Shown one piece after another: positions 3,042 to 34,933 of a stretch of 64,000 nt of DNA. The DNA lies in the NCBI RefSeq assembly GCF_011045215.1, contig NZ_CP049201.1; one strand, given 5' to 3'. How positions within the stretch are numbered: the stretch's first letter is position 1; each line of letters starts with the position of its first letter. This DNA comes from Escherichia coli. GTDB taxonomy: Bacteria > Pseudomonadota > Gammaproteobacteria > Enterobacterales > Enterobacteriaceae. The notes under the pieces are model-generated. The model saw nothing but the letters and a program-made list of their open reading frames with translations. It did not search any database and was not told the DNA's origin. The translations under genes were made by a program, and so were the position numbers.

Positions 3042-4425
3042 CAGGCGTCTCCTGCTTCGGTGGTTCATAATTCGCCAGCGCGTCCACATCAATGATGAGT
3101 GGAGCTTCGCCATAGGTTTGCGTGGCATTAACAAGGCTTGCCAGCCATTCAGTGACGGCGGCACGGTTTTCAGGATCAACCTGTGGCGACACGGCAGAGA
3201 AAAGTGCTATCGCCTGTTGAATCACTTTACTGTCGCTTTCCCGGCGTTTGTCCGGCGACTCCTCCACCAGCTCCTGCCATGTCGCGGTAAATTCACGTCG
3301 CCACTGGTAAAACGTGGTTTTATAGTCATCAGTTATGATGTCCGGGTAATCATTTTTCAGCGACTGATAAAATTCCTCGTTCCAGGCGATGTACTGCACC
3401 AGGCGTTCGAAATAATCCATCACGGGTTCAATCTGCTGGCGTACACCATCGATATACTGGCTGATGGCTTTCGAATCTTCGGTCCCCTCACCGAAACCAT
3501 TCGAAAAGGCTTCCTCTTTGATGAGGATCGCCGGAACGTCACTCCCTGACGCAATATCGGAAATAATATTGTCGCGTGCAGCGTTTAGCGCACCATCGAT
3601 GTTTTGTAGATTTAGCGAGGTAACGTCCTCATCCTTCCCGATACTAAGCACACCTTTATTTTTTGCCTCTTTGACGTTTTCCCTTTTTCGTCCCGTGGCG
3701 GCAGCCATGATCCCGTCAAGTTTCGAACCGTACTGCACAACTTTAGCTACCAGTACGCCCGCCTTCTGGCTGACGAGATCATTCGCCTCCATCGTGTTGA
3801 TATAGGATTTCAGGGAATAAAGAACGCGCTGAAACACACTTCGTCCGGTGAATCCGAACGATGAACTCTGAAACTCCAGATAAATCGGTGTGCCGTTGAA
3901 GATTTTCAGTGTGCGTGACGGATGCCAGTCTTTCCCACCAATCTTCAGTTTTTTATTGGCTTCCTGGAAAAACGGGCTGTTGGGGTTCTGGTCAGTCACC
4001 ATCGAACCGGAAGCGTTCAACGGGTCCCACGCGTTGATATACACGTCATCTTCTGTCAGTCCGAACGTCGGAAGCGGTTCACGACATGGAACGCTGTCGG
4101 TGCCCACGCCGATCGCTGCAGCACCGTAGCAACGAGACAGAAAAAACAGATTTTTAATCTTCTCGTTGACCTTCATGCGTTCCCATACCTCCTGAAAACG
4201 CCTCACAACCCTCTCGTCAGGGTCTGTCTCCACGTTATACTGGCGCGGCTTACACATCGCCATCAGTATGGGTTTTTCGACAAGTTTTCCGCCCAGAGGA
4301 TGGAATTGCCACAGCTGCTTACACAATTCATAGCCAATGTCGGTTCCCGGCTGAATTTCTTCAGCCTCAAGAATACGCATCAGTGCCGAACCGAGGCCGC
4401 CAGTAATCTCGATCTCTGCCATCAA
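2986..4425 (-). CDS. phage portal protein, 479 aa
   Basis: Large ORF directly downstream of terminase large subunit with acidic C-terminus; canonical position of portal. Confidence 0.55.
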   Translation of the reverse strand: MMAEIEITGGLGSALMRILEAEEIQPGTDIGYELCKQLWQFHPLGGKLVEKPILMAMCKPRQYNVETDPDERVVRRFQEVWERMKVNEKIKNLFFLSRCYGAAAIGVGTDSVPCREPLPTFGLTEDDVYINAWDPLNASGSMVTDQNPNSPFFQEANKKLKIGGKDWHPSRTLKIFNGTPIYLEFQSSSFGFTGRSVFQRVLYSLKSYINTMEANDLVSQKAGVLVAKVVQYGSKLDGIMAAATGRKRENVKEAKNKGVLSIGKDEDVTSLNLQNIDGALNAARDNIISDIASGSDVPAILIKEEAFSNGFGEGTEDSKAISQYIDGVRQQIEPVMDYFERLVQYIAWNEEFYQSLKNDYPDIITDDYKTTFYQWRREFTATWQELVEESPDKRRESDSKVIQQAIALFSAVSPQVDPENRAAVTEWLASLVNATQTYGEAPLIIDVDALANYEPPKQETPDGNFQPGGEEEETDQDAV

Positions 4426-10975: not shown

Positions 10976-11277
10976 AGAGCATTCATCGTGTAGTAATAGA
11001 ATTATATTTATATATGGTCGCCACCAGAATGAGTCGTCAACCTACAAAGCCATCCTGGCTTACTGTACGTGTGCGCATGGAACAGGTAACGACTCATTCT
11101 GCTAACGACGTTTACAAGTAATAATCACATACCATTATGTAATACAAAAAAAAGCAGCACTGAAACTGTAACCGTTCAGATATTACAGCATGAAGAAAAA
11201 CAATAGTACCTACAAAGCTGTTCTCCGCGAAAATTCGCCAGTGCTGATAAAGCTATGCCTCGTTTGTTTTACAGGAG

Positions 11278-11349
<72 letters not shown>

Positions 11350-11352
11350 ATA

Positions 11353-11428
<76 letters not shown>

Positions 11429-16824: not shown

Positions 16825-17604
16825 CTACCGTTCTCCGGTGGCGATAATCTGTCTGACAATATCCTTGTGCCTGTACAGTTCCCGCAGCGCCGCGCAGACT
16901 CGCTCCCACTTCCGGACATGATTTTTCGCCCGACGCAGTTCGCGGTTTGCCATATGCAGTGATGGTAAAACCAGGTCATCAGCTCGCGTTTCAGTAAACG
17001 ATGGCAGCGAATGCACAATGTCCGCCACAGTTTCTGTTTTAATATCTTCCTGTGTTGCAGCCTCCTGTACTGGTAACGCAACACATGCAGGTTGAGGAAA
17101 GGCTTTACCATCAGTTTCCGCTACCGATGCAGCTTTCGGCTCTGCTGGTAAATTATCGCCCGGCATGCAGTAACGAAATTTACCGTTCTGATTAACGCGA
17201 ATCAGACGACCTTTACTGATTGCCATTGCCAGCGTTGAAGCCACTTTGCGTGATGTGGTGCCGAAAAACGTAGCCAGTTCATCCGCCGTTTGTGGGCCAC
17301 GTTGTTCAATCGTCGCAGTTAAATCGCACTCCGAAATTTTCGCGACTGTTGCCGTGGCGGTTTCTTCCGGCAGTTCTGCCTGCTCTGGCTGTTCCTGCTG
17401 AACGTTGTTATCAGCCACACGCCAGGTGTATACGCTTTTATCAACGAAACCAGCCTTTTTCAGTTCCCACAGCTCGTTCAGTACCTCTTCACGACTGATA
17501 TCAAGTCGCGCAGCCAGTTCTACCGACGTGGCTTTTCCCATTGCTTTCAGTGCGTCAAAAACAGTCTCCATTAAAATTTCCTCCCGGTAAAAATCACTTC
17601 GCAA
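16825..17604 (-). CDS. hypothetical phage protein (YdaW / DUF1627-like position), 259 aa
   Basis: N-terminal winged-helix-like region; directly downstream of the DnaC-like gene as ydaW is in Rac. Confidence 0.4.
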
Positions 17605-18340
17605 TTCCTAGCTGGACGACATTCGGACGCCAGCTCTCCCAGTTAAAATTCACCCATCGCCCGCCGTTCATGGTCATGCGATCCATAATCCTCTCGCCGA
17701 GCAATGTTTTCATGGCCTCATAGTTCAGGTTTGTCAGCATCCCCACGCTGCGCATCGACGCTGTCCGGCGATCAACAATCTGGTGCAGCACCACCAGCTC
17801 GTTTTTTGTCTCGCGCTGAATGCCAATTTCATCAAGAACCAGCAGATCCACTTCGCACAGTTCCCGCAAAAATTTTTCGCCTGATTTCCCGTCGTCATAG
17901 CTGGCGTGTAGAGCACTCATGACATCAGCCACGGTAACCACAATCACTGTCTGGCCATCTTTCAGCAGGCGATTCCCGATTGCCGCCGCCAGATGGTTTT
18001 TTCCGGTACCAGGTTTTCCGCTGAACGCAAAATTTGTACACCCGGTCATCAGTTCATCAGCGATAGATTTCGCCTGGCTCAACGCGTATCGCTGGCCGTC
18101 GTTCTGCACCAGGTAATTCGCAAACGAGCATTTGCGGTGCAACAGCTGGATGCCGGAGCGATTCAGGATTTTTTCCACCCGCAACTGACGATTCTGACGG
18201 TTGATCTCCTCACAACGTTTCTGGCCTTCTACAAGTTGCCACTCGCGCCACTCCGCCACCGTCCTGAATGGCGCGGTTACATGTGACGGGGCCAGTCTGC
18301 GGATACGTTCCAGAACGCCGCCTGTCGCAATATTTTTCAT
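17594..18340 (-). CDS. ydaV: DnaC-like replication helicase loader (IstB-type AAA ATPase), 248 aa
   Basis: Walker [16 protein letters not shown] and Walker B LLVLDEIG; downstream of the O-like gene; length matches Rac YdaV. Confidence 0.7.
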
Positions 18341-18346
18341 GGTCAG

Positions 18347-19153
18347 TTACCCCCTGAAGCCTGGCGGGATCGCACTGTCCGGCAACGAGACGGTGTTAAC
18401 CTGTCGAGGCAGCATCTCCGGTCGAACGCCTTTCGGTGCGAACAAACCCTGGTATTCATTGGCGATGCTGTGTCGAATCACCTGCTCAGGGGTAAAACCC
18501 TGCTGGCGGAATTTTTCCAGTTCCCGTATCGCCCCGTTAGCGCCCTGCTCTGTTCGAATCGGTTTTCGCAATGCCTGGCGAAATTCAACCCACTCACGCC
18601 AAAGCGAGACAGAAATCCAGTTCGGCAAAGCAATATCCAGAGGGTCAAACTTTTTGACACCTCGATTCCCCCGGGGGGGATTTAGGGGGGGATCTGTTTT
18701 TAGATCTTTATCTGTATCTTTATTAGTTGCCTTTGTGTTGGCATCATGTTCAAACACTGCTCCAACTTCTGTTTGAACACCTGTTAAATTTCTCTCTTGT
18801 TTTGTTTGAACATCTGCTTCCTTTCTGCTTCTTCTGGCCTGAACAGATGCTTTTCCGGCGGCTGATTTTTTGGTTAATTTTTCCCTGACTGAAGCCAGAT
18901 CTTCCTCAATCCGAAGATGCACCCATTCGTCGCCGTTATCGCAAAAAAACTCCCGCAAGGATGGTTCAACATCAGCCCATCGCTCGTTAGTCAGACGAGC
19001 AATTTTTGCCAGCCTGTTTTTGGGTATTGGCTTTCCTGTTTGCCAGTAATTGAACATCAGCAACAAATACGCACCGTGCTCCTCTGCTGACAAATGCATG
19101 GTGTCAGCCAAGTAATCAGCTATGTACAGTTGCATATATGGTAATGCGGCCAT
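18347..19153 (-). CDS. ydaU: replication initiation (O-like / DUF1376) protein
   Basis: N-terminal YMQLYIADYLADTMHLSAEEHGAYLLLM motif; position upstream of the DnaC-like loader; start taken at internal MAALPYMQ. Confidence 0.55.
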   Translation of the reverse strand: MAALPYMQLYIADYLADTMHLSAEEHGAYLLLMFNYWQTGKPIPKNRLAKIARLTNERWADVEPSLREFFCDNGDEWVHLRIEEDLASVREKLTKKSAAGKASVQARRSRKEADVQTKQERNLTGVQTEVGAVFEHDANTKATNKDTDKDLKTDPPLNPPRGNRGVKKFDPLDIALPNWISVSLWREWVEFRQALRKPIRTEQGANGAIRELEKFRQQGFTPEQVIRHSIANEYQGLFAPKGVRPEMLPRQVNTVSLPDSAIPPGFRG

Positions 19154-19232
19154 AACTGCCTCATCTGGTGCCGAACCTTCCTCCGGATATAATCTGTGAT
19201 TCCCCAATCAACAGAACCAAAGGAGGTTCGAC

Positions 19233-19484
19233 ATGTCTTTTACATTTGATAAGTCTGCTCCATTCCCCCAAAAATTTTGGGTGGACAGTATTACTGGAAC
19301 CGAGTCAAAAATTTTTAGCACCTCAGGAATGCTCAATCGCGGAGGAGTAAAAATACTTGCCCAGGAATTCCATACACAGGAACTAAATTACGGGGCTTAT
19401 CACAAACTGGAGTTGATAATGGATGCAACCCAAATTGATGAACTGATCGTTGCCCTACAAAAGCTAAAAGAAAAGATGTCATAA
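19233..19484 (+). CDS. hypothetical protein, 83 aa, opposite strand to the surrounding operon
   Basis: Strong Shine-Dalgarno AAAGGAGG 6 nt upstream of ATG; stop abuts the stop of the convergent minus-strand gene. Confidence 0.45.
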   Translation: MSFTFDKSAPFPQKFWVDSITGTESKIFSTSGMLNRGGVKILAQEFHTQELNYGAYHKLELIMDATQIDELIVALQKLKEKMS

Positions 19485-19787
19485 TCACCCCCTAAAAATT
19501 ACGTGGCGCAGCGGTTGAGCTTTGCTGTAGTCGATCTCATCGCCATACTCAATATCAAGAGCTTGTCCCTGCGCCAGTTCCATCCACCGAATGTGATCTG
19601 CGGCTTTTTCTTTATCTTTGATATTGATGAACAACAGCGTTGACGAGGGATACCCGTTAACAAGATGGCGATGCAGAGAGAGTCGTATCGCATACCAGGC
19701 AACATTTCGGGCTATACGCTGAAGCAATGTTTCGGCTTCCAGTGTTTTAAGTCGGTATTTTTTCAGTTCATATTTTTCCATCACCAC
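19485..19787 (-). CDS. hypothetical protein, 100 aa
   Basis: ORF with AAGGTGA Shine-Dalgarno; lies between the ydaT-like and O-like genes where Rac has none. Confidence 0.4.
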   Translation of the reverse strand: MVMEKYELKKYRLKTLEAETLLQRIARNVAWYAIRLSLHRHLVNGYPSSTLLFINIKDKEKAADHIRWMELAQGQALDIEYGDEIDYSKAQPLRHVIFRG

Positions 19788-19793
19788 ATCACC

Positions 19794-20216
19794 TTAATGA
19801 ACAACAACAGAATCGCCGGACGAACCGCCGCCGCTGAAATGCGCTTTACGGTAAACGGCCTGGACTGCGTCATCATGCGCATCAATTGCCGTACTCAGTG
19901 CGTCCTGTGCCGCAAGTAATGCCCGTCGTTCCAGGGTATCGAAGATGCTGAGTCGGTGGCGCAGCTCGCGCGGAAGGATTGCCAGAATTGCTGGGATCAG
20001 CTTCTGAATTTTTTCTCTTTGCGTTTTCGTTTCACCTTTCAACCAACGGTGATAGATATTCTGCTGATTGTTCCAGTCCTTGCCTGGTACCAGGGGCAAT
20101 TCGCCGCCCCCCTGGCGCAGATATTCTTCAGTAATTGCATTGGCTACCCATGCCTGCCCTTTTTCGGCTGCCAGGGCTAACAGCACTGATTCGATGTGCT
20201 CATGCCTGATTTTCAT
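19794..20216 (-). CDS. ydaT: YdaT-like protein, 140 aa
   Basis: Second gene of the cro-side operon divergent from the repressor; length and position match Rac YdaT. Confidence 0.55.
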   Translation of the reverse strand: MKIRHEHIESVLLALAAEKGQAWVANAITEEYLRQGGGELPLVPGKDWNNQQNIYHRWLKGETKTQREKIQKLIPAILAILPRELRHRLSIFDTLERRALLAAQDALSTAIDAHDDAVQAVYRKAHFSGGGSSGDSVVVH

Positions 20217-20502
20217 GAATCAACTCCTGTGCATTTTGTGTGTTAGTCTTACATCCAACAGGTAAACCATCGGTCGGATTCGGGTAGATATCAGGCCGAA
20301 GTTCATGAGGTGTAACCTCGAAATTCGTAGCCTCAGCGATACGCAATACCTTTTCGGGGCTTAACTGACTACGGCCAGTAGCTACGAGGCTAATCATTGA
20401 TTGCGAACAACCAGCGAGCGCGGCCAAACAAGACTGTCGTACACGATTTTTTTTCAAATATTCATCTAATGTCATAAGGGTCACCTTAGTAATGCCTGTC
20501 AA
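20200..20502 (-). CDS. ydaS: Cro-like HTH regulator (YdaS-like), about 100 aa
   Basis: HTH motif SCLAALAGCSQSMISLVATGRSQLS; divergent from the repressor gene across a 77-bp AT-rich region. Confidence 0.55.
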   Translation of the reverse strand: MTGITKVTLMTLDEYLKKNRVRQSCLAALAGCSQSMISLVATGRSQLSPEKVLRIAEATNFEVTPHELRPDIYPNPTDGLPVGCKTNTQNAQELIHENQA

Positions 20503-20579: not shown

Positions 20580-21044
20580 ATGAGAAGAAAACGCGAAGAA
20601 ATCGCATCGCCAGAAGCTACGCAGCGTCTGCGCGCAGTCTGGGATGCAAAAAAAAGAGAGCTCAAACTGACTCAGGAGCTTGCTGCTGAGCTGATGGGCT
20701 TTGAGACTCAATCCACAGTTAGCCACTATCTCAACGGAAAGGCTCCACTAAACACTGATGCAGCATTAAAATTCGCTGTATTACTAAGAGTTAAGCCTGA
20801 AGAGTTGAGGCCTGATTTAGCTGATCTGATGAATTACGTCCGTTCTTCAGGAACTTATGACGAAAGTTTCGAAGGCGAAGGTTGGCGGATGGTTAACAAG
20901 CAACAAGCTGATTTACTGGATCTTTTTGAAATCCTACCCGAATCAGAAAAAGCAAAACTAATCGAAAGGCTTAAAGGTCAGAATGAACTCTACAAAGAAG
21001 CGTTTGAAAAGATGCTGGCAGCTCAGAAACGCATGAAGAAATAG
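20580..21044 (+). CDS. racR: prophage repressor with cI-like N-terminal HTH and no LexA-type peptidase domain (RacR-like), 154 aa
   Basis: HTH segment LKLTQELAAELMGFETQSTVSHYLNG resembles lambda cI N-domain; C-terminus is a short helical domain; followed by a terminator. Confidence 0.6.
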   Translation: MRRKREEIASPEATQRLRAVWDAKKRELKLTQELAAELMGFETQSTVSHYLNGKAPLNTDAALKFAVLLRVKPEELRPDLADLMNYVRSSGTYDESFEGEGWRMVNKQQADLLDLFEILPESEKAKLIERLKGQNELYKEAFEKMLAAQKRMKK

Positions 21045-26629: not shown

Positions 26630-26856
26630 GCGCAGCCACAAAGCTCACAGGAGAAAAACCAGTGCGATACACAAAAATTAAACCATGTCCATTTTGTGGT
26701 TGTCCATCAGTAACGGTGAAAGCCATTTCAGGATATTACCGAGCGAAGTGTAACGGATGCGAATCCCGAACCGGTTATGGTGGAAGTGAAAAGGAAGCAC
26801 TCGAAAGATGGAATAAACGAACCACTGGAAATAATAATGGAGGTGTTCATGTATAA
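26620..26856 (+). CDS. ralR: RalR-like restriction-alleviation protein / type I toxin
   Basis: [48 protein letters not shown] matches Rac RalR. Confidence 0.7.
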
Positions 26857-27037
26857 AATTACCGCCACTATTGAAAAGGAAGGTGGCACTCCTACTAACT
26901 GGACAAGATATTCAAAATCTAAACTAACGAAATCAGAATGCGAAAAAATGCTCTCAGGTAAAAAAGAAGCGGGCGTTTCCAGAGAGCAGAAAGTAAAACT
27001 GATAAATTTTAATTGCGAGAAACTTCAGTCCTGGTGA
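26837..27037 (+). CDS. ydaC: YdaC-like small protein; start uncertain
   Basis: [23 protein letters not shown]...; position between ralR and xis as in Rac. Confidence 0.5.
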   Translation: MEVFMYKITATIEKEGGTPTNWTRYSKSKLTKSECEKMLSGKKEAGVSREQKVKLINFNCEKLQSW

Positions 27038-31338: not shown

Positions 31339-31459
31339 AAAAAAAAGCCGACTCATCAAAGTCGGCGTCGTACGAATCAATTGTGCTATGCAGTAATTCA
31401 AAAAAGGAAGTAAGACAATATGGAGCGCAACGCCCATCGCTTGACGTTGCATTCACCTG
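31339..31459 (-). ncRNA. fnrS: FnrS small RNA
   Basis: Reverse complement reads GCAGGTGAATGCAACGTCAAGCGATGGGCGTTGCGCTCC...GACGCCGACTTTGATGAGTCGGCTTTTTTTT with terminal hairpin; lies between zntB and dbpA as expected. Confidence 0.75.
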
Positions 31460-31555
31460 CAAGAGAGATATTGCCCTGAATGGGTAGAGAGTTTATTGAC
31501 TTCGCTCAAACTTTGCGGCGTTTTTGTATACAGACAGCCGGAAAAATTGCTTTTG

Positions 31556-34837: not shown

Positions 34838-34933
34838 ACCGGCGCAGAGGAGACAATGCCGGATTTAAGACGCGGATGCACTGCTGTGTGTACTGTAGAG
34901 TCTGGCGGATGTCGACAGACTCTATTTTTTTAT
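34838..34933 (+). ncRNA. mcaS: McaS (IsrA) small RNA
   Basis: ACCGGCGCAGAGGAGACAATGCCGGATTTAAGACGCGGATGCACTGCTGTGTGTACTGTAGAGTCTGGCGGATGTCGACAGACTCTATTTTTTTAT between smrA and abgR. Confidence 0.7.

Follow-up and report, generated by a model that had tools for sequence, protein, structure and literature searches.

The immunity and early region of lambdoid phages is among the best-studied regulatory circuits, and the YdaS, YdaT and RacR proteins of its Rac-type version are under experimental study. Here we describe two small open reading frames (ORFs) within such a region in Escherichia coli, ORF83 on the plus strand (19233-19484, 83 residues) and ORF98 on the minus strand (19485-19781, 98 residues). 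Coordinates refer to the window, the 64,000-nucleotide stretch of contig NZ_CP049201.1 (assembly GCF_011045215.1) that was analyzed. The pair lies between ydaT and a ydaU-type replication gene; ORF98 is co-directional with ydaS-ydaT-ydaU, whereas ORF83 is counter-transcribed relative to this early operon. At its start, ORF83 overlaps an imperfect palindrome of approximately 70 base pairs (bp) at 19166-19235, assigned to neither strand, which we refer to as the block. It is close to certain that the two genes form a real, conserved and mobile module in a cargo-swapping slot of Rac-like and lambda-like enterobacterial prophages.

The nearest described arrangements are the morons of HK97 and lambda and the accessory-gene hotspots of P2/P4 prophages (PMC9122126). 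Like these, the locus is present or absent between otherwise collinear prophages, it has conserved flanks around interchangeable and mostly uncharacterised small cargo, and the cargo is AT-rich and oriented independently of the surrounding operon. Unlike them, the slot lies inside the early regulatory and replication operon, between the CII analogue and a replication gene or between cro and cII; its cargo is counter-transcribed from a start codon that is part of a conserved 70-bp palindrome; and the cargo described here is a fixed pair straddling both strands, with no flanking terminator. Of the features by which Hendrix and Juhala recognized morons, presence/absence polymorphism and deviant base composition are both found, and an intrinsic terminator downstream is not, with no terminator-like site detected between or inside ORF83 and ORF98. 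The slot is a prophage accessory-gene slot of a known kind, and the two small protein families are new. An earlier note on this DNA had suggested that the pair might be a moron. The polymorphic cargo slot, the AT-rich ORF83, its counter-transcription and its strong ribosome-binding site agree with that proposal; ORF98, which is not an opposite-strand gene, does not.

A second precedent is offered by the PRE-cI establishment transcript of lambda and by oop, the antisense RNA between cII and O; both have the same position and orientation as ORF83, opposite to PR and adjacent to cII or O. Such transcripts, like that of ORF83, necessarily run antisense to early genes, and in lambda-like loci the CII-site signature of PRE lies directly upstream of the block. 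The lambda transcripts, however, carry no protein-coding gene in this interval, oop has no sequence or Rfam similarity to the block, and the PRE of Rac-type prophages lies elsewhere. A third is ECs1072 (NF033230) of O157:H7 prophages such as CP-933P, which shares with ORF83 the slot, the strand and the head block, including Shine-Dalgarno sequence and ATG. The two proteins are nonetheless dissimilar in sequence, ORF83 giving no NCBIfam match and no BLASTP similarity to an ECs1072 member, and none of 15 ECs1072 loci has an ORF98-family partner. Searches of the literature on the block sequence and on ECs1072 returned no functional study, and we met with no earlier account of the block, of the slot or of the two protein families. 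Nor did the literature searched mention a conserved element from which interchangeable genes start in mid-operon on the opposite strand.

The plus-strand frame, its near-consensus Shine-Dalgarno sequence and the abutting stops reported in the earlier note were all borne out. AAGGAGG at 19220-19226 is separated by 6 nucleotides from the ATG of ORF83, and the ORF83 stop (TAA, 19482-19484) directly adjoins that of ORF98 (TCA, 19485-19487; TGA on the minus strand). The minus-strand gene required correction from 100 residues, starting at GTG 19787, to 98 residues, starting at ATG 19781. The ATG is most likely the true start, to judge from its surroundings and relatives, because AAGGTG lies 8 nucleotides upstream of it and only 2 nucleotides from the GTG, and because the RefSeq annotation (PGAP) and all homologues begin MEKYELK. 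The G+C content is 39.3% in ORF83 and 45.5% in ORF98, as opposed to 48-53% in ydaT, ydaU and ydaV.

In agreement with the earlier note, Rac has no gene at this position in K-12 MG1655, in which ydaT and ydaU are 12 bp apart. A direct ydaT-ydaU junction of this type was present in 746 of 5426 complete E. coli genomes, the cargo slot with the conserved block in about 500 and the exact ORF83 plus ORF98 cassette in 18. The pair had been called an insertion, a term that is valid only relative to K-12. When K-12 (L157, 2620-2653) was compared with the window (19154-19171), homology ended inside the block, 33 nucleotides into the annotated K-12 ydaU, and the N-terminal extension of K-12 YdaU is therefore divergent. 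Because the 5′ end of K-12 ydaU diverges and homology ends within the block, the K-12 junction may have arisen by deletion from an ancestor that bore the slot, and may thus not be the ancestral state.

Both reading frames bear the marks of selection on protein sequence. The window copy was compared with two diverged copies, one in a prophage of Citrobacter freundii (L004) and one on a metagenomic contig (L008). The ratio of nonsynonymous to synonymous substitution rates (dN/dS) was 0.21-0.34 for ORF83 and 0.08-0.14 for ORF98, in each case the lowest among the six frames. ORF83, annotated in RefSeq as hypothetical protein WP_000010975.1, is soluble and near-neutral (isoelectric point (pI) 6.1), with a grand average of hydropathy (GRAVY) of -0.2 and no membrane segment. 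Its homologues, found by profile search of 1.84 billion representatives, are 78-86 residues long and fall to 35% identity; the deep search added only five further small ones. Three long repeat proteins that matched over short stretches (E 3e-5 to 9e-4) were disregarded as low-complexity. The family is recognized by an N-terminal motif, MxFTFDKxxP...FWVDS, and a C-terminal helix, QIDELIxxLQxLKExM, and a peptide-pattern scan was unusable, no stretch being conserved enough. One homologue is encoded by a 253-bp contig labeled Acinetobacter baumannii (P0011), a host assignment that looks doubtful.

ORF98 is basic (pI 9.2), hydrophilic (GRAVY -0.47) and likewise without a membrane segment. Its homologues form 21 clusters from Escherichia, Citrobacter, Enterobacter and Yokenella, with family identity down to approximately 30-35%, and share the invariant helix ETLIQRIARNVAWYALR and a C-terminal PVPLHHVIFRG; as patterns, these read ETLxQRIARNxAWYAxR and PxPxxHVIFRG. 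Divergent ORF98-like paralogues adjoin the block in three further loci, L018 (4285-4599), L020 (3484-3840) and L105, where they overlap ORFs of 72-75 residues that begin at the block ATG. Neither protein resembles a characterized family. ORF83 has no match in Pfam, PHROGs, NCBIfam or PADLOC, and ORF98 and divergent members of its family have none of significance in Pfam, PHROGs (nothing at E<=0.1) or NCBIfam. A single marginal match in PADLOC-DB 2.0 joins ORF98 to HEC-05 (E = 0.0024); it spans 46 residues, whereas the model has 583 positions. Profile searches of PDB sequences with both families yielded nothing meaningful, and tblastn of both proteins against 50,697 GenBank phage records gave no match. 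By these measures ORF83 and ORF98 are real proteins under purifying selection, since each has its lowest dN/dS in its own frame, each has homologues, and the convergent arrangement recurs. On the homologues recovered, each defines a small family restricted to prophages of Enterobacteriaceae.

The two families travel together. An ORF98-family gene is the convergent neighbor in all 21 non-identical ORF83-family loci, which represent about 10 lineages below 90% identity. Of 66 loci with a different cargo in that position, none has such a gene. The pairing of the families is not due to chance. Stops abut in most loci, and in L012 the genes overlap by 21 nucleotides. The pair occurs in two contexts. 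In the window and in L004, L011, L013, L016 and L019 it lies between ydaT and a replication gene, which may be of the ydaU type, the DnaT type or another; in the lambda-like loci L012 and L015 it lies between cro and a canonical cII (PF05269). The earlier note had allowed that the genes might prove to be ordinary conserved lambdoid early genes, and this describes one half of the pair: ORF98 belongs to a recurrent, co-directional early-operon family and ORF83 does not.

The block accompanies ORF83 in all contexts, and its distribution is far wider than that of the pair. The 91 bp at 19150-19240 are 98% identical in prophages with a different cassette and a different replication gene. Within the block core, TGGTGCCGAACCTTCCTCCGGATATAATCTGTGATTCCCCAATCAACAGAACCAAAGGAGGTTCGACATG (19166-19235), the Shine-Dalgarno sequence and ATG (19233-19235) of ORF83 sit in one arm of the palindrome, at an optimal spacing that hardly varies among the block variants examined. 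This embedding of the ORF83 start in a conserved palindrome common to many cargo genes was missed in the earlier note. At least 120 IMG/VR contigs match the invariant part of the core, AGAACCNNAGGAGGTTCGACAT, and the ORFs that begin at the block ATG belong to at least 10 unrelated families. Besides the ORF83 family, they include ECs1072 in O157:H7 prophages including CP-933P, phrog_4753 (97 residues), a 151-residue family of the L002 type, phrog_36733 (131 residues, with an N-terminal hydrophobic helix), phrog_10846 (83 residues, weakly BssS-like) and several singletons. Because at least 10 unrelated families follow it, the block is the mark of a general hypervariable slot and not of this cassette alone. 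By its distribution, then, the block is the head of a hypervariable, counter-transcribed cargo slot, of which ORF83 plus ORF98 is one two-gene cargo.

Several other block-bearing loci deserve description. Blocks with unrelated cargo were also found in L002, L003, L009, L010 and L038-L156. The phrog_10846 cargo (L071, L086, L115) weakly resembles the biofilm regulator BssS over its full length (NF008958, E = 1.6e-5, below the curated cut-off). Alignments by hhalign of ORF83 with the BssS-like, 75-residue and 88-residue cargoes gave E = 0.07-0.4, and these were treated as unrelated. L014 carries two tandem blocks (1257-1322 and 1629-1698); the first heads an ORF83 homologue, P0022, and in the second, which abuts the ydaT stop, ATA replaces ATG and there is no cargo.

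As RNA, the block folds on both strands and consistently better on that of the early operon. The window copy reaches -32.5 kcal/mol in the operon sense (z = -3.5) and -23.2 kcal/mol on the cargo strand (z = -2.45). Across 41 block variants the mean minimum free energies are -31.7 and -24.3 kcal/mol, and the operon-sense fold is the more stable in 40. The consensus pairing survives in 97.1% of cells for the operon-sense strand versus 78.8% for the cargo strand, because the variation runs through G-U pairs; a clear double change occurs in only one pair, and covariation support is weak. Rfam has no family at 19160-19240 at gathering score, or even at E<=5. An intrinsic terminator on the early-operon strand was considered and rejected, as no U-tract follows the hairpin. 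The palindrome probably has a role in the early transcript too, such as that of an RNase III or other processing site ahead of the next early gene.

Two further signals lie in the block interior. The first, TATAAT at 19188-19193, was not called by a consensus scan. The second, the inverted repeat GTGATTCCCCAATCAA at 19196-19211, has YdaT-type half-sites at N4 spacing, and its counterpart in L004 is a perfect TTGATT-CCCC-AATCAA. Binding of YdaT here is unsupported: the spacing is N4 and not the N6 of the experimentally defined site, the window has fewer matches than expected by chance, and other block variants, that of CP-933P among them, lack the repeat.

What might the pair do? In Rac-type prophages YdaS and YdaT are analogues of Cro and CII, and a PRE analogue with a YdaT-box (TTGATT-N6-AATCAA) lies at the ydaS/ydaT junction (PMC8630535, PMC9986795, PMC11879457). 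The window contains a YdaT-box-like inverted repeat, CTGATTTTCATGAATCAA (20206-20223, on neither strand in particular), across the ydaT start codon, and it matches the experimentally defined activator site of the PRE analogue of Rac and CP-933P. A role for the block as PRE of Rac-type prophages was rejected, given that PRE and YdaT-box both map to that junction. In L015 and L012, the only perfect TTGC-N6-TTGC, the consensus of the lambda CII site, falls in the first codons of cII, approximately 40 nucleotides upstream of the block on the ORF83 strand, and in L015 it is followed by GATAAT. Going by these predicted sites, the arrangement is the geometry of lambda PRE, and a CII-activated transcript in L012 and L015 would cross the block, ORF83 in sense, and ORF98 and cro in antisense, before entering cI. 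Whichever the context, ORF83 is oriented like the repressor gene and ORF98 like the lytic genes. Because the stops abut and no terminator intervenes, a transcript of ORF83 is antisense to ORF98 and to ydaT or cro, and vice versa.

These features suggest a model in which ORF98 would be translated from the lytic early transcript, after ydaT in the window and after cro in lambda-like relatives, and would serve as an early factor on the lytic side. ORF83 would be made with transcription in the repressor direction, from PRE in lambda-like phages and, in the Rac-type variant, from a weak promoter with the TATAAT inside the block. We hypothesize that the two are antagonists. ORF83 would oppose ORF98 through their RNAs, by convergent transcription and duplex formation, and perhaps through its protein too. 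Our overall reading is of an antagonistic accessory pair that is lodged in a hypervariable slot of the early operon and is linked to the choice between lysis and lysogeny or to maintenance of the prophage; we adopt it tentatively, with a likelihood that we would place slightly below even. A bolder version is rather doubtful. It would have the block as an undescribed, widespread, counter-transcribed cargo site with its start codon in an RNA hairpin, and ORF83 and ORF98 as a new two-protein component of the switch, in which ORF83, co-expressed with the repressor and in lambda-like phages carried by the PRE transcript, antagonises ORF98 as a factor of the early lytic phase.

A number of observations weigh against the overall reading. 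On rare occasions each family is found alone: L014, with the most divergent ORF83 homologue, has no ORF98 partner, and ORF98-like genes, partly as tandem paralogues, occur without ORF83 in L018, L020/L021 and L105. Between the two families, allele identities correlate poorly: L013 and the window share ORF98 at 94% and ORF83 at only 45% identity, and L015 and L016 share ORF83 at 73% and ORF98 at 39%. Recombination therefore separates alleles, while pairing persists at the level of families. Such shuffling argues against allele-specific co-adaptation between the proteins; the persistence of the pairing in spite of it favors a functional link that is not allele-specific. The PRE analogue of Rac-type prophages lies at ydaS/ydaT, and the Rac-type pair is therefore outside the PRE transcript. 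The internal TATAAT has a poor -35 element, and the hexamer is degenerate in many block variants. If the transcript starts upstream of the block, the modeled cargo-strand hairpin would sequester both Shine-Dalgarno sequence and AUG, whereas in a transcript from the internal TATAAT the 5′ arm would be missing and the ribosome-binding site accessible. Finally, AlphaFold2 models built from the two family alignments were unusable (predicted local distance difference test scores of 50 and 51), so no biochemical activity can be assigned.

The slot's exchange of AT-rich cargo, like that of known prophage defence hotspots, raises the alternative of a defence or addiction moron expressed from the lysogen, the toxin-antitoxin, abortive-infection or superinfection-exclusion function that the earlier note had in mind. 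The strict linkage of the two families, the hydrophobic helix of phrog_36733 and the HEC-05 match of ORF98 point the same way. We nevertheless consider this unlikely, and found no evidence for such a role: apart from that marginal match the searches of PADLOC, Pfam, PHROGs and NCBIfam gave nothing meaningful, neither protein is hydrophobic, and ORF98, as part of the lytic early transcript, would not be expressed in a lysogen. The CP-933P immunity region does contain a type II toxin-antitoxin system, paaR2-paaA2-parE2 (PMC8630535), and such pairs are likewise made up of small genes in tight linkage within the immunity region of a lambdoid prophage. Here, in contrast, the genes are convergent in every locus instead of forming a co-directional operon, no toxin or antitoxin domain was recognized, one partner rides on a repressed lytic transcript, alleles are shuffled between partners, and each family also occurs alone, which an obligate toxin-antidote pair would not be expected to tolerate. 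Type I systems with a convergent 3′ overlap pair a small hydrophobic toxin peptide with a non-coding antisense RNA; unlike txpA/RatA, both ORFs at this locus encode hydrophilic products of 83-98 residues that evolve as proteins. The same shuffling, together with the ORF98-like paralogues that lack ORF83 (L018, L020, L105) and the ORF83 homologue that lacks ORF98 (L014), would be expected of two functionally independent accessory genes in adjacent slots, paired by shared descent and limited recombination. That explanation is improbable in view of the association of 21 of 21 versus 0 of 66 loci, which spans about 10 lineages, reaches down to 30-50% identity and holds in two contexts, even though at least 10 families freely replace one another at the adjacent cargo position.

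Two narrower proposals dispense with one partner. ORF98 could be a CIII-like inhibitor of the FtsH protease that stabilises YdaT or CII, with ORF83 an unrelated neighbor. Its helix ETLLQRIARNV resembles the lambda CIII core ESLLERITRKL, the shared amphipathic motif being E-[ST]-L-[LI]-[EQ]-R-I-[TA]-R-[KN]; hhalign aligned exactly those 16-18 columns (E = 0.01, in a single comparison); and the gene is the immediate neighbor of the CII analogue or of CII, following ydaT or preceding cII. The hhalign probability, however, is about 4%, the match covers no more than those columns, and so short a resemblance could be due to chance. Without a PHROG match at E<=0.1, ORF98 and its homologues do not match the CIII family phrog_550, and they also lack a match in Pfam, whose CIII family is Lambda_CIII. 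ORF98, moreover, has no profile-level homology to CIII, differs from it in length, does not share its location in the PL operon of lambda and carries a conserved C-terminal HVIFRG motif that CIII lacks, and we regard the proposal as very unlikely. Least credible of all is that ORF83 is non-functional and that only the palindromic RNA or DNA element is conserved, with ORFs at its ATG as by-products. A few loci do have ATA for ATG or only a short ORF (the second L014 copy, L105), some block-headed ORFs overlap a better-supported gene on the opposite strand, and the hairpin is favored on the other strand. Against this, the frame is open at 78-86 residues with conserved motifs in all homologues to 35% identity, dN/dS is lowest in that frame, the Shine-Dalgarno spacing is optimal and near-invariant, and other cargoes are independent curated families (NF033230, phrog_4753, phrog_36733, phrog_10846).

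A conserved element such as the block would bring antisense transcription and extra proteins into the lambdoid switch, and it would single out ORF83, ORF98, ECs1072, phrog_4753, phrog_36733 and the BssS-like protein as candidates for prophage-host or phage-phage functions. The block also exposes what looks like systematic mis-annotation, the opposite strand having been called in some records in place of the block-headed cargo. In L002, a plus-strand cargo at 3084-3539 conflicts with a minus-strand ORF at 3304-3717; RefSeq calls the latter, of 137 residues, and the record of phage pPE4 calls the ORFs of both strands. In phage EKP1 (L158), a plus-strand ORF from 2568 conflicts with a minus-strand gene at 2630-2962; the annotated minus-strand gene (110 residues) has no PHROG match, and the unannotated plus-strand ORF resembles phrog_4753. 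These two phages, recorded as Actinobacillus phage vB_Apl-pPE4 (L003, PP818812.1) and Elizabethkingia phage EKP1 (OM284015.1), carry an enterobacterial Rac-type block, and pPE4 a ydaT module in addition; both host assignments look doubtful.

The surrounding genes are those of a Rac-type early region on the minus strand. A racR-like repressor gene (20580-21044, plus strand) is followed by ydaS (20200-20502, minus) and by ydaT (19794-20216, minus), which encodes the 140-residue CII analogue and forms the left flank of the pair. The right flank is the ydaU-type replication gene (18347-19153, minus), which encodes a primosomal-like DUF1376 protein and whose ATG at 19153 is 12 nucleotides from the block; beyond it lies a DnaC-like ydaV (17594-18340, minus). 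The window also holds RalA, the small antitoxin RNA of RalR, as well as FnrS and McaS (26855-27033, 31343-31460 and 34838-34933), and it therefore represents the chromosomal locus of Rac. On the side of the early region opposite these three RNAs, a tRNA-Gly(tcc) and tRNA-Thr(tgt) pair is located at 11277-11428.

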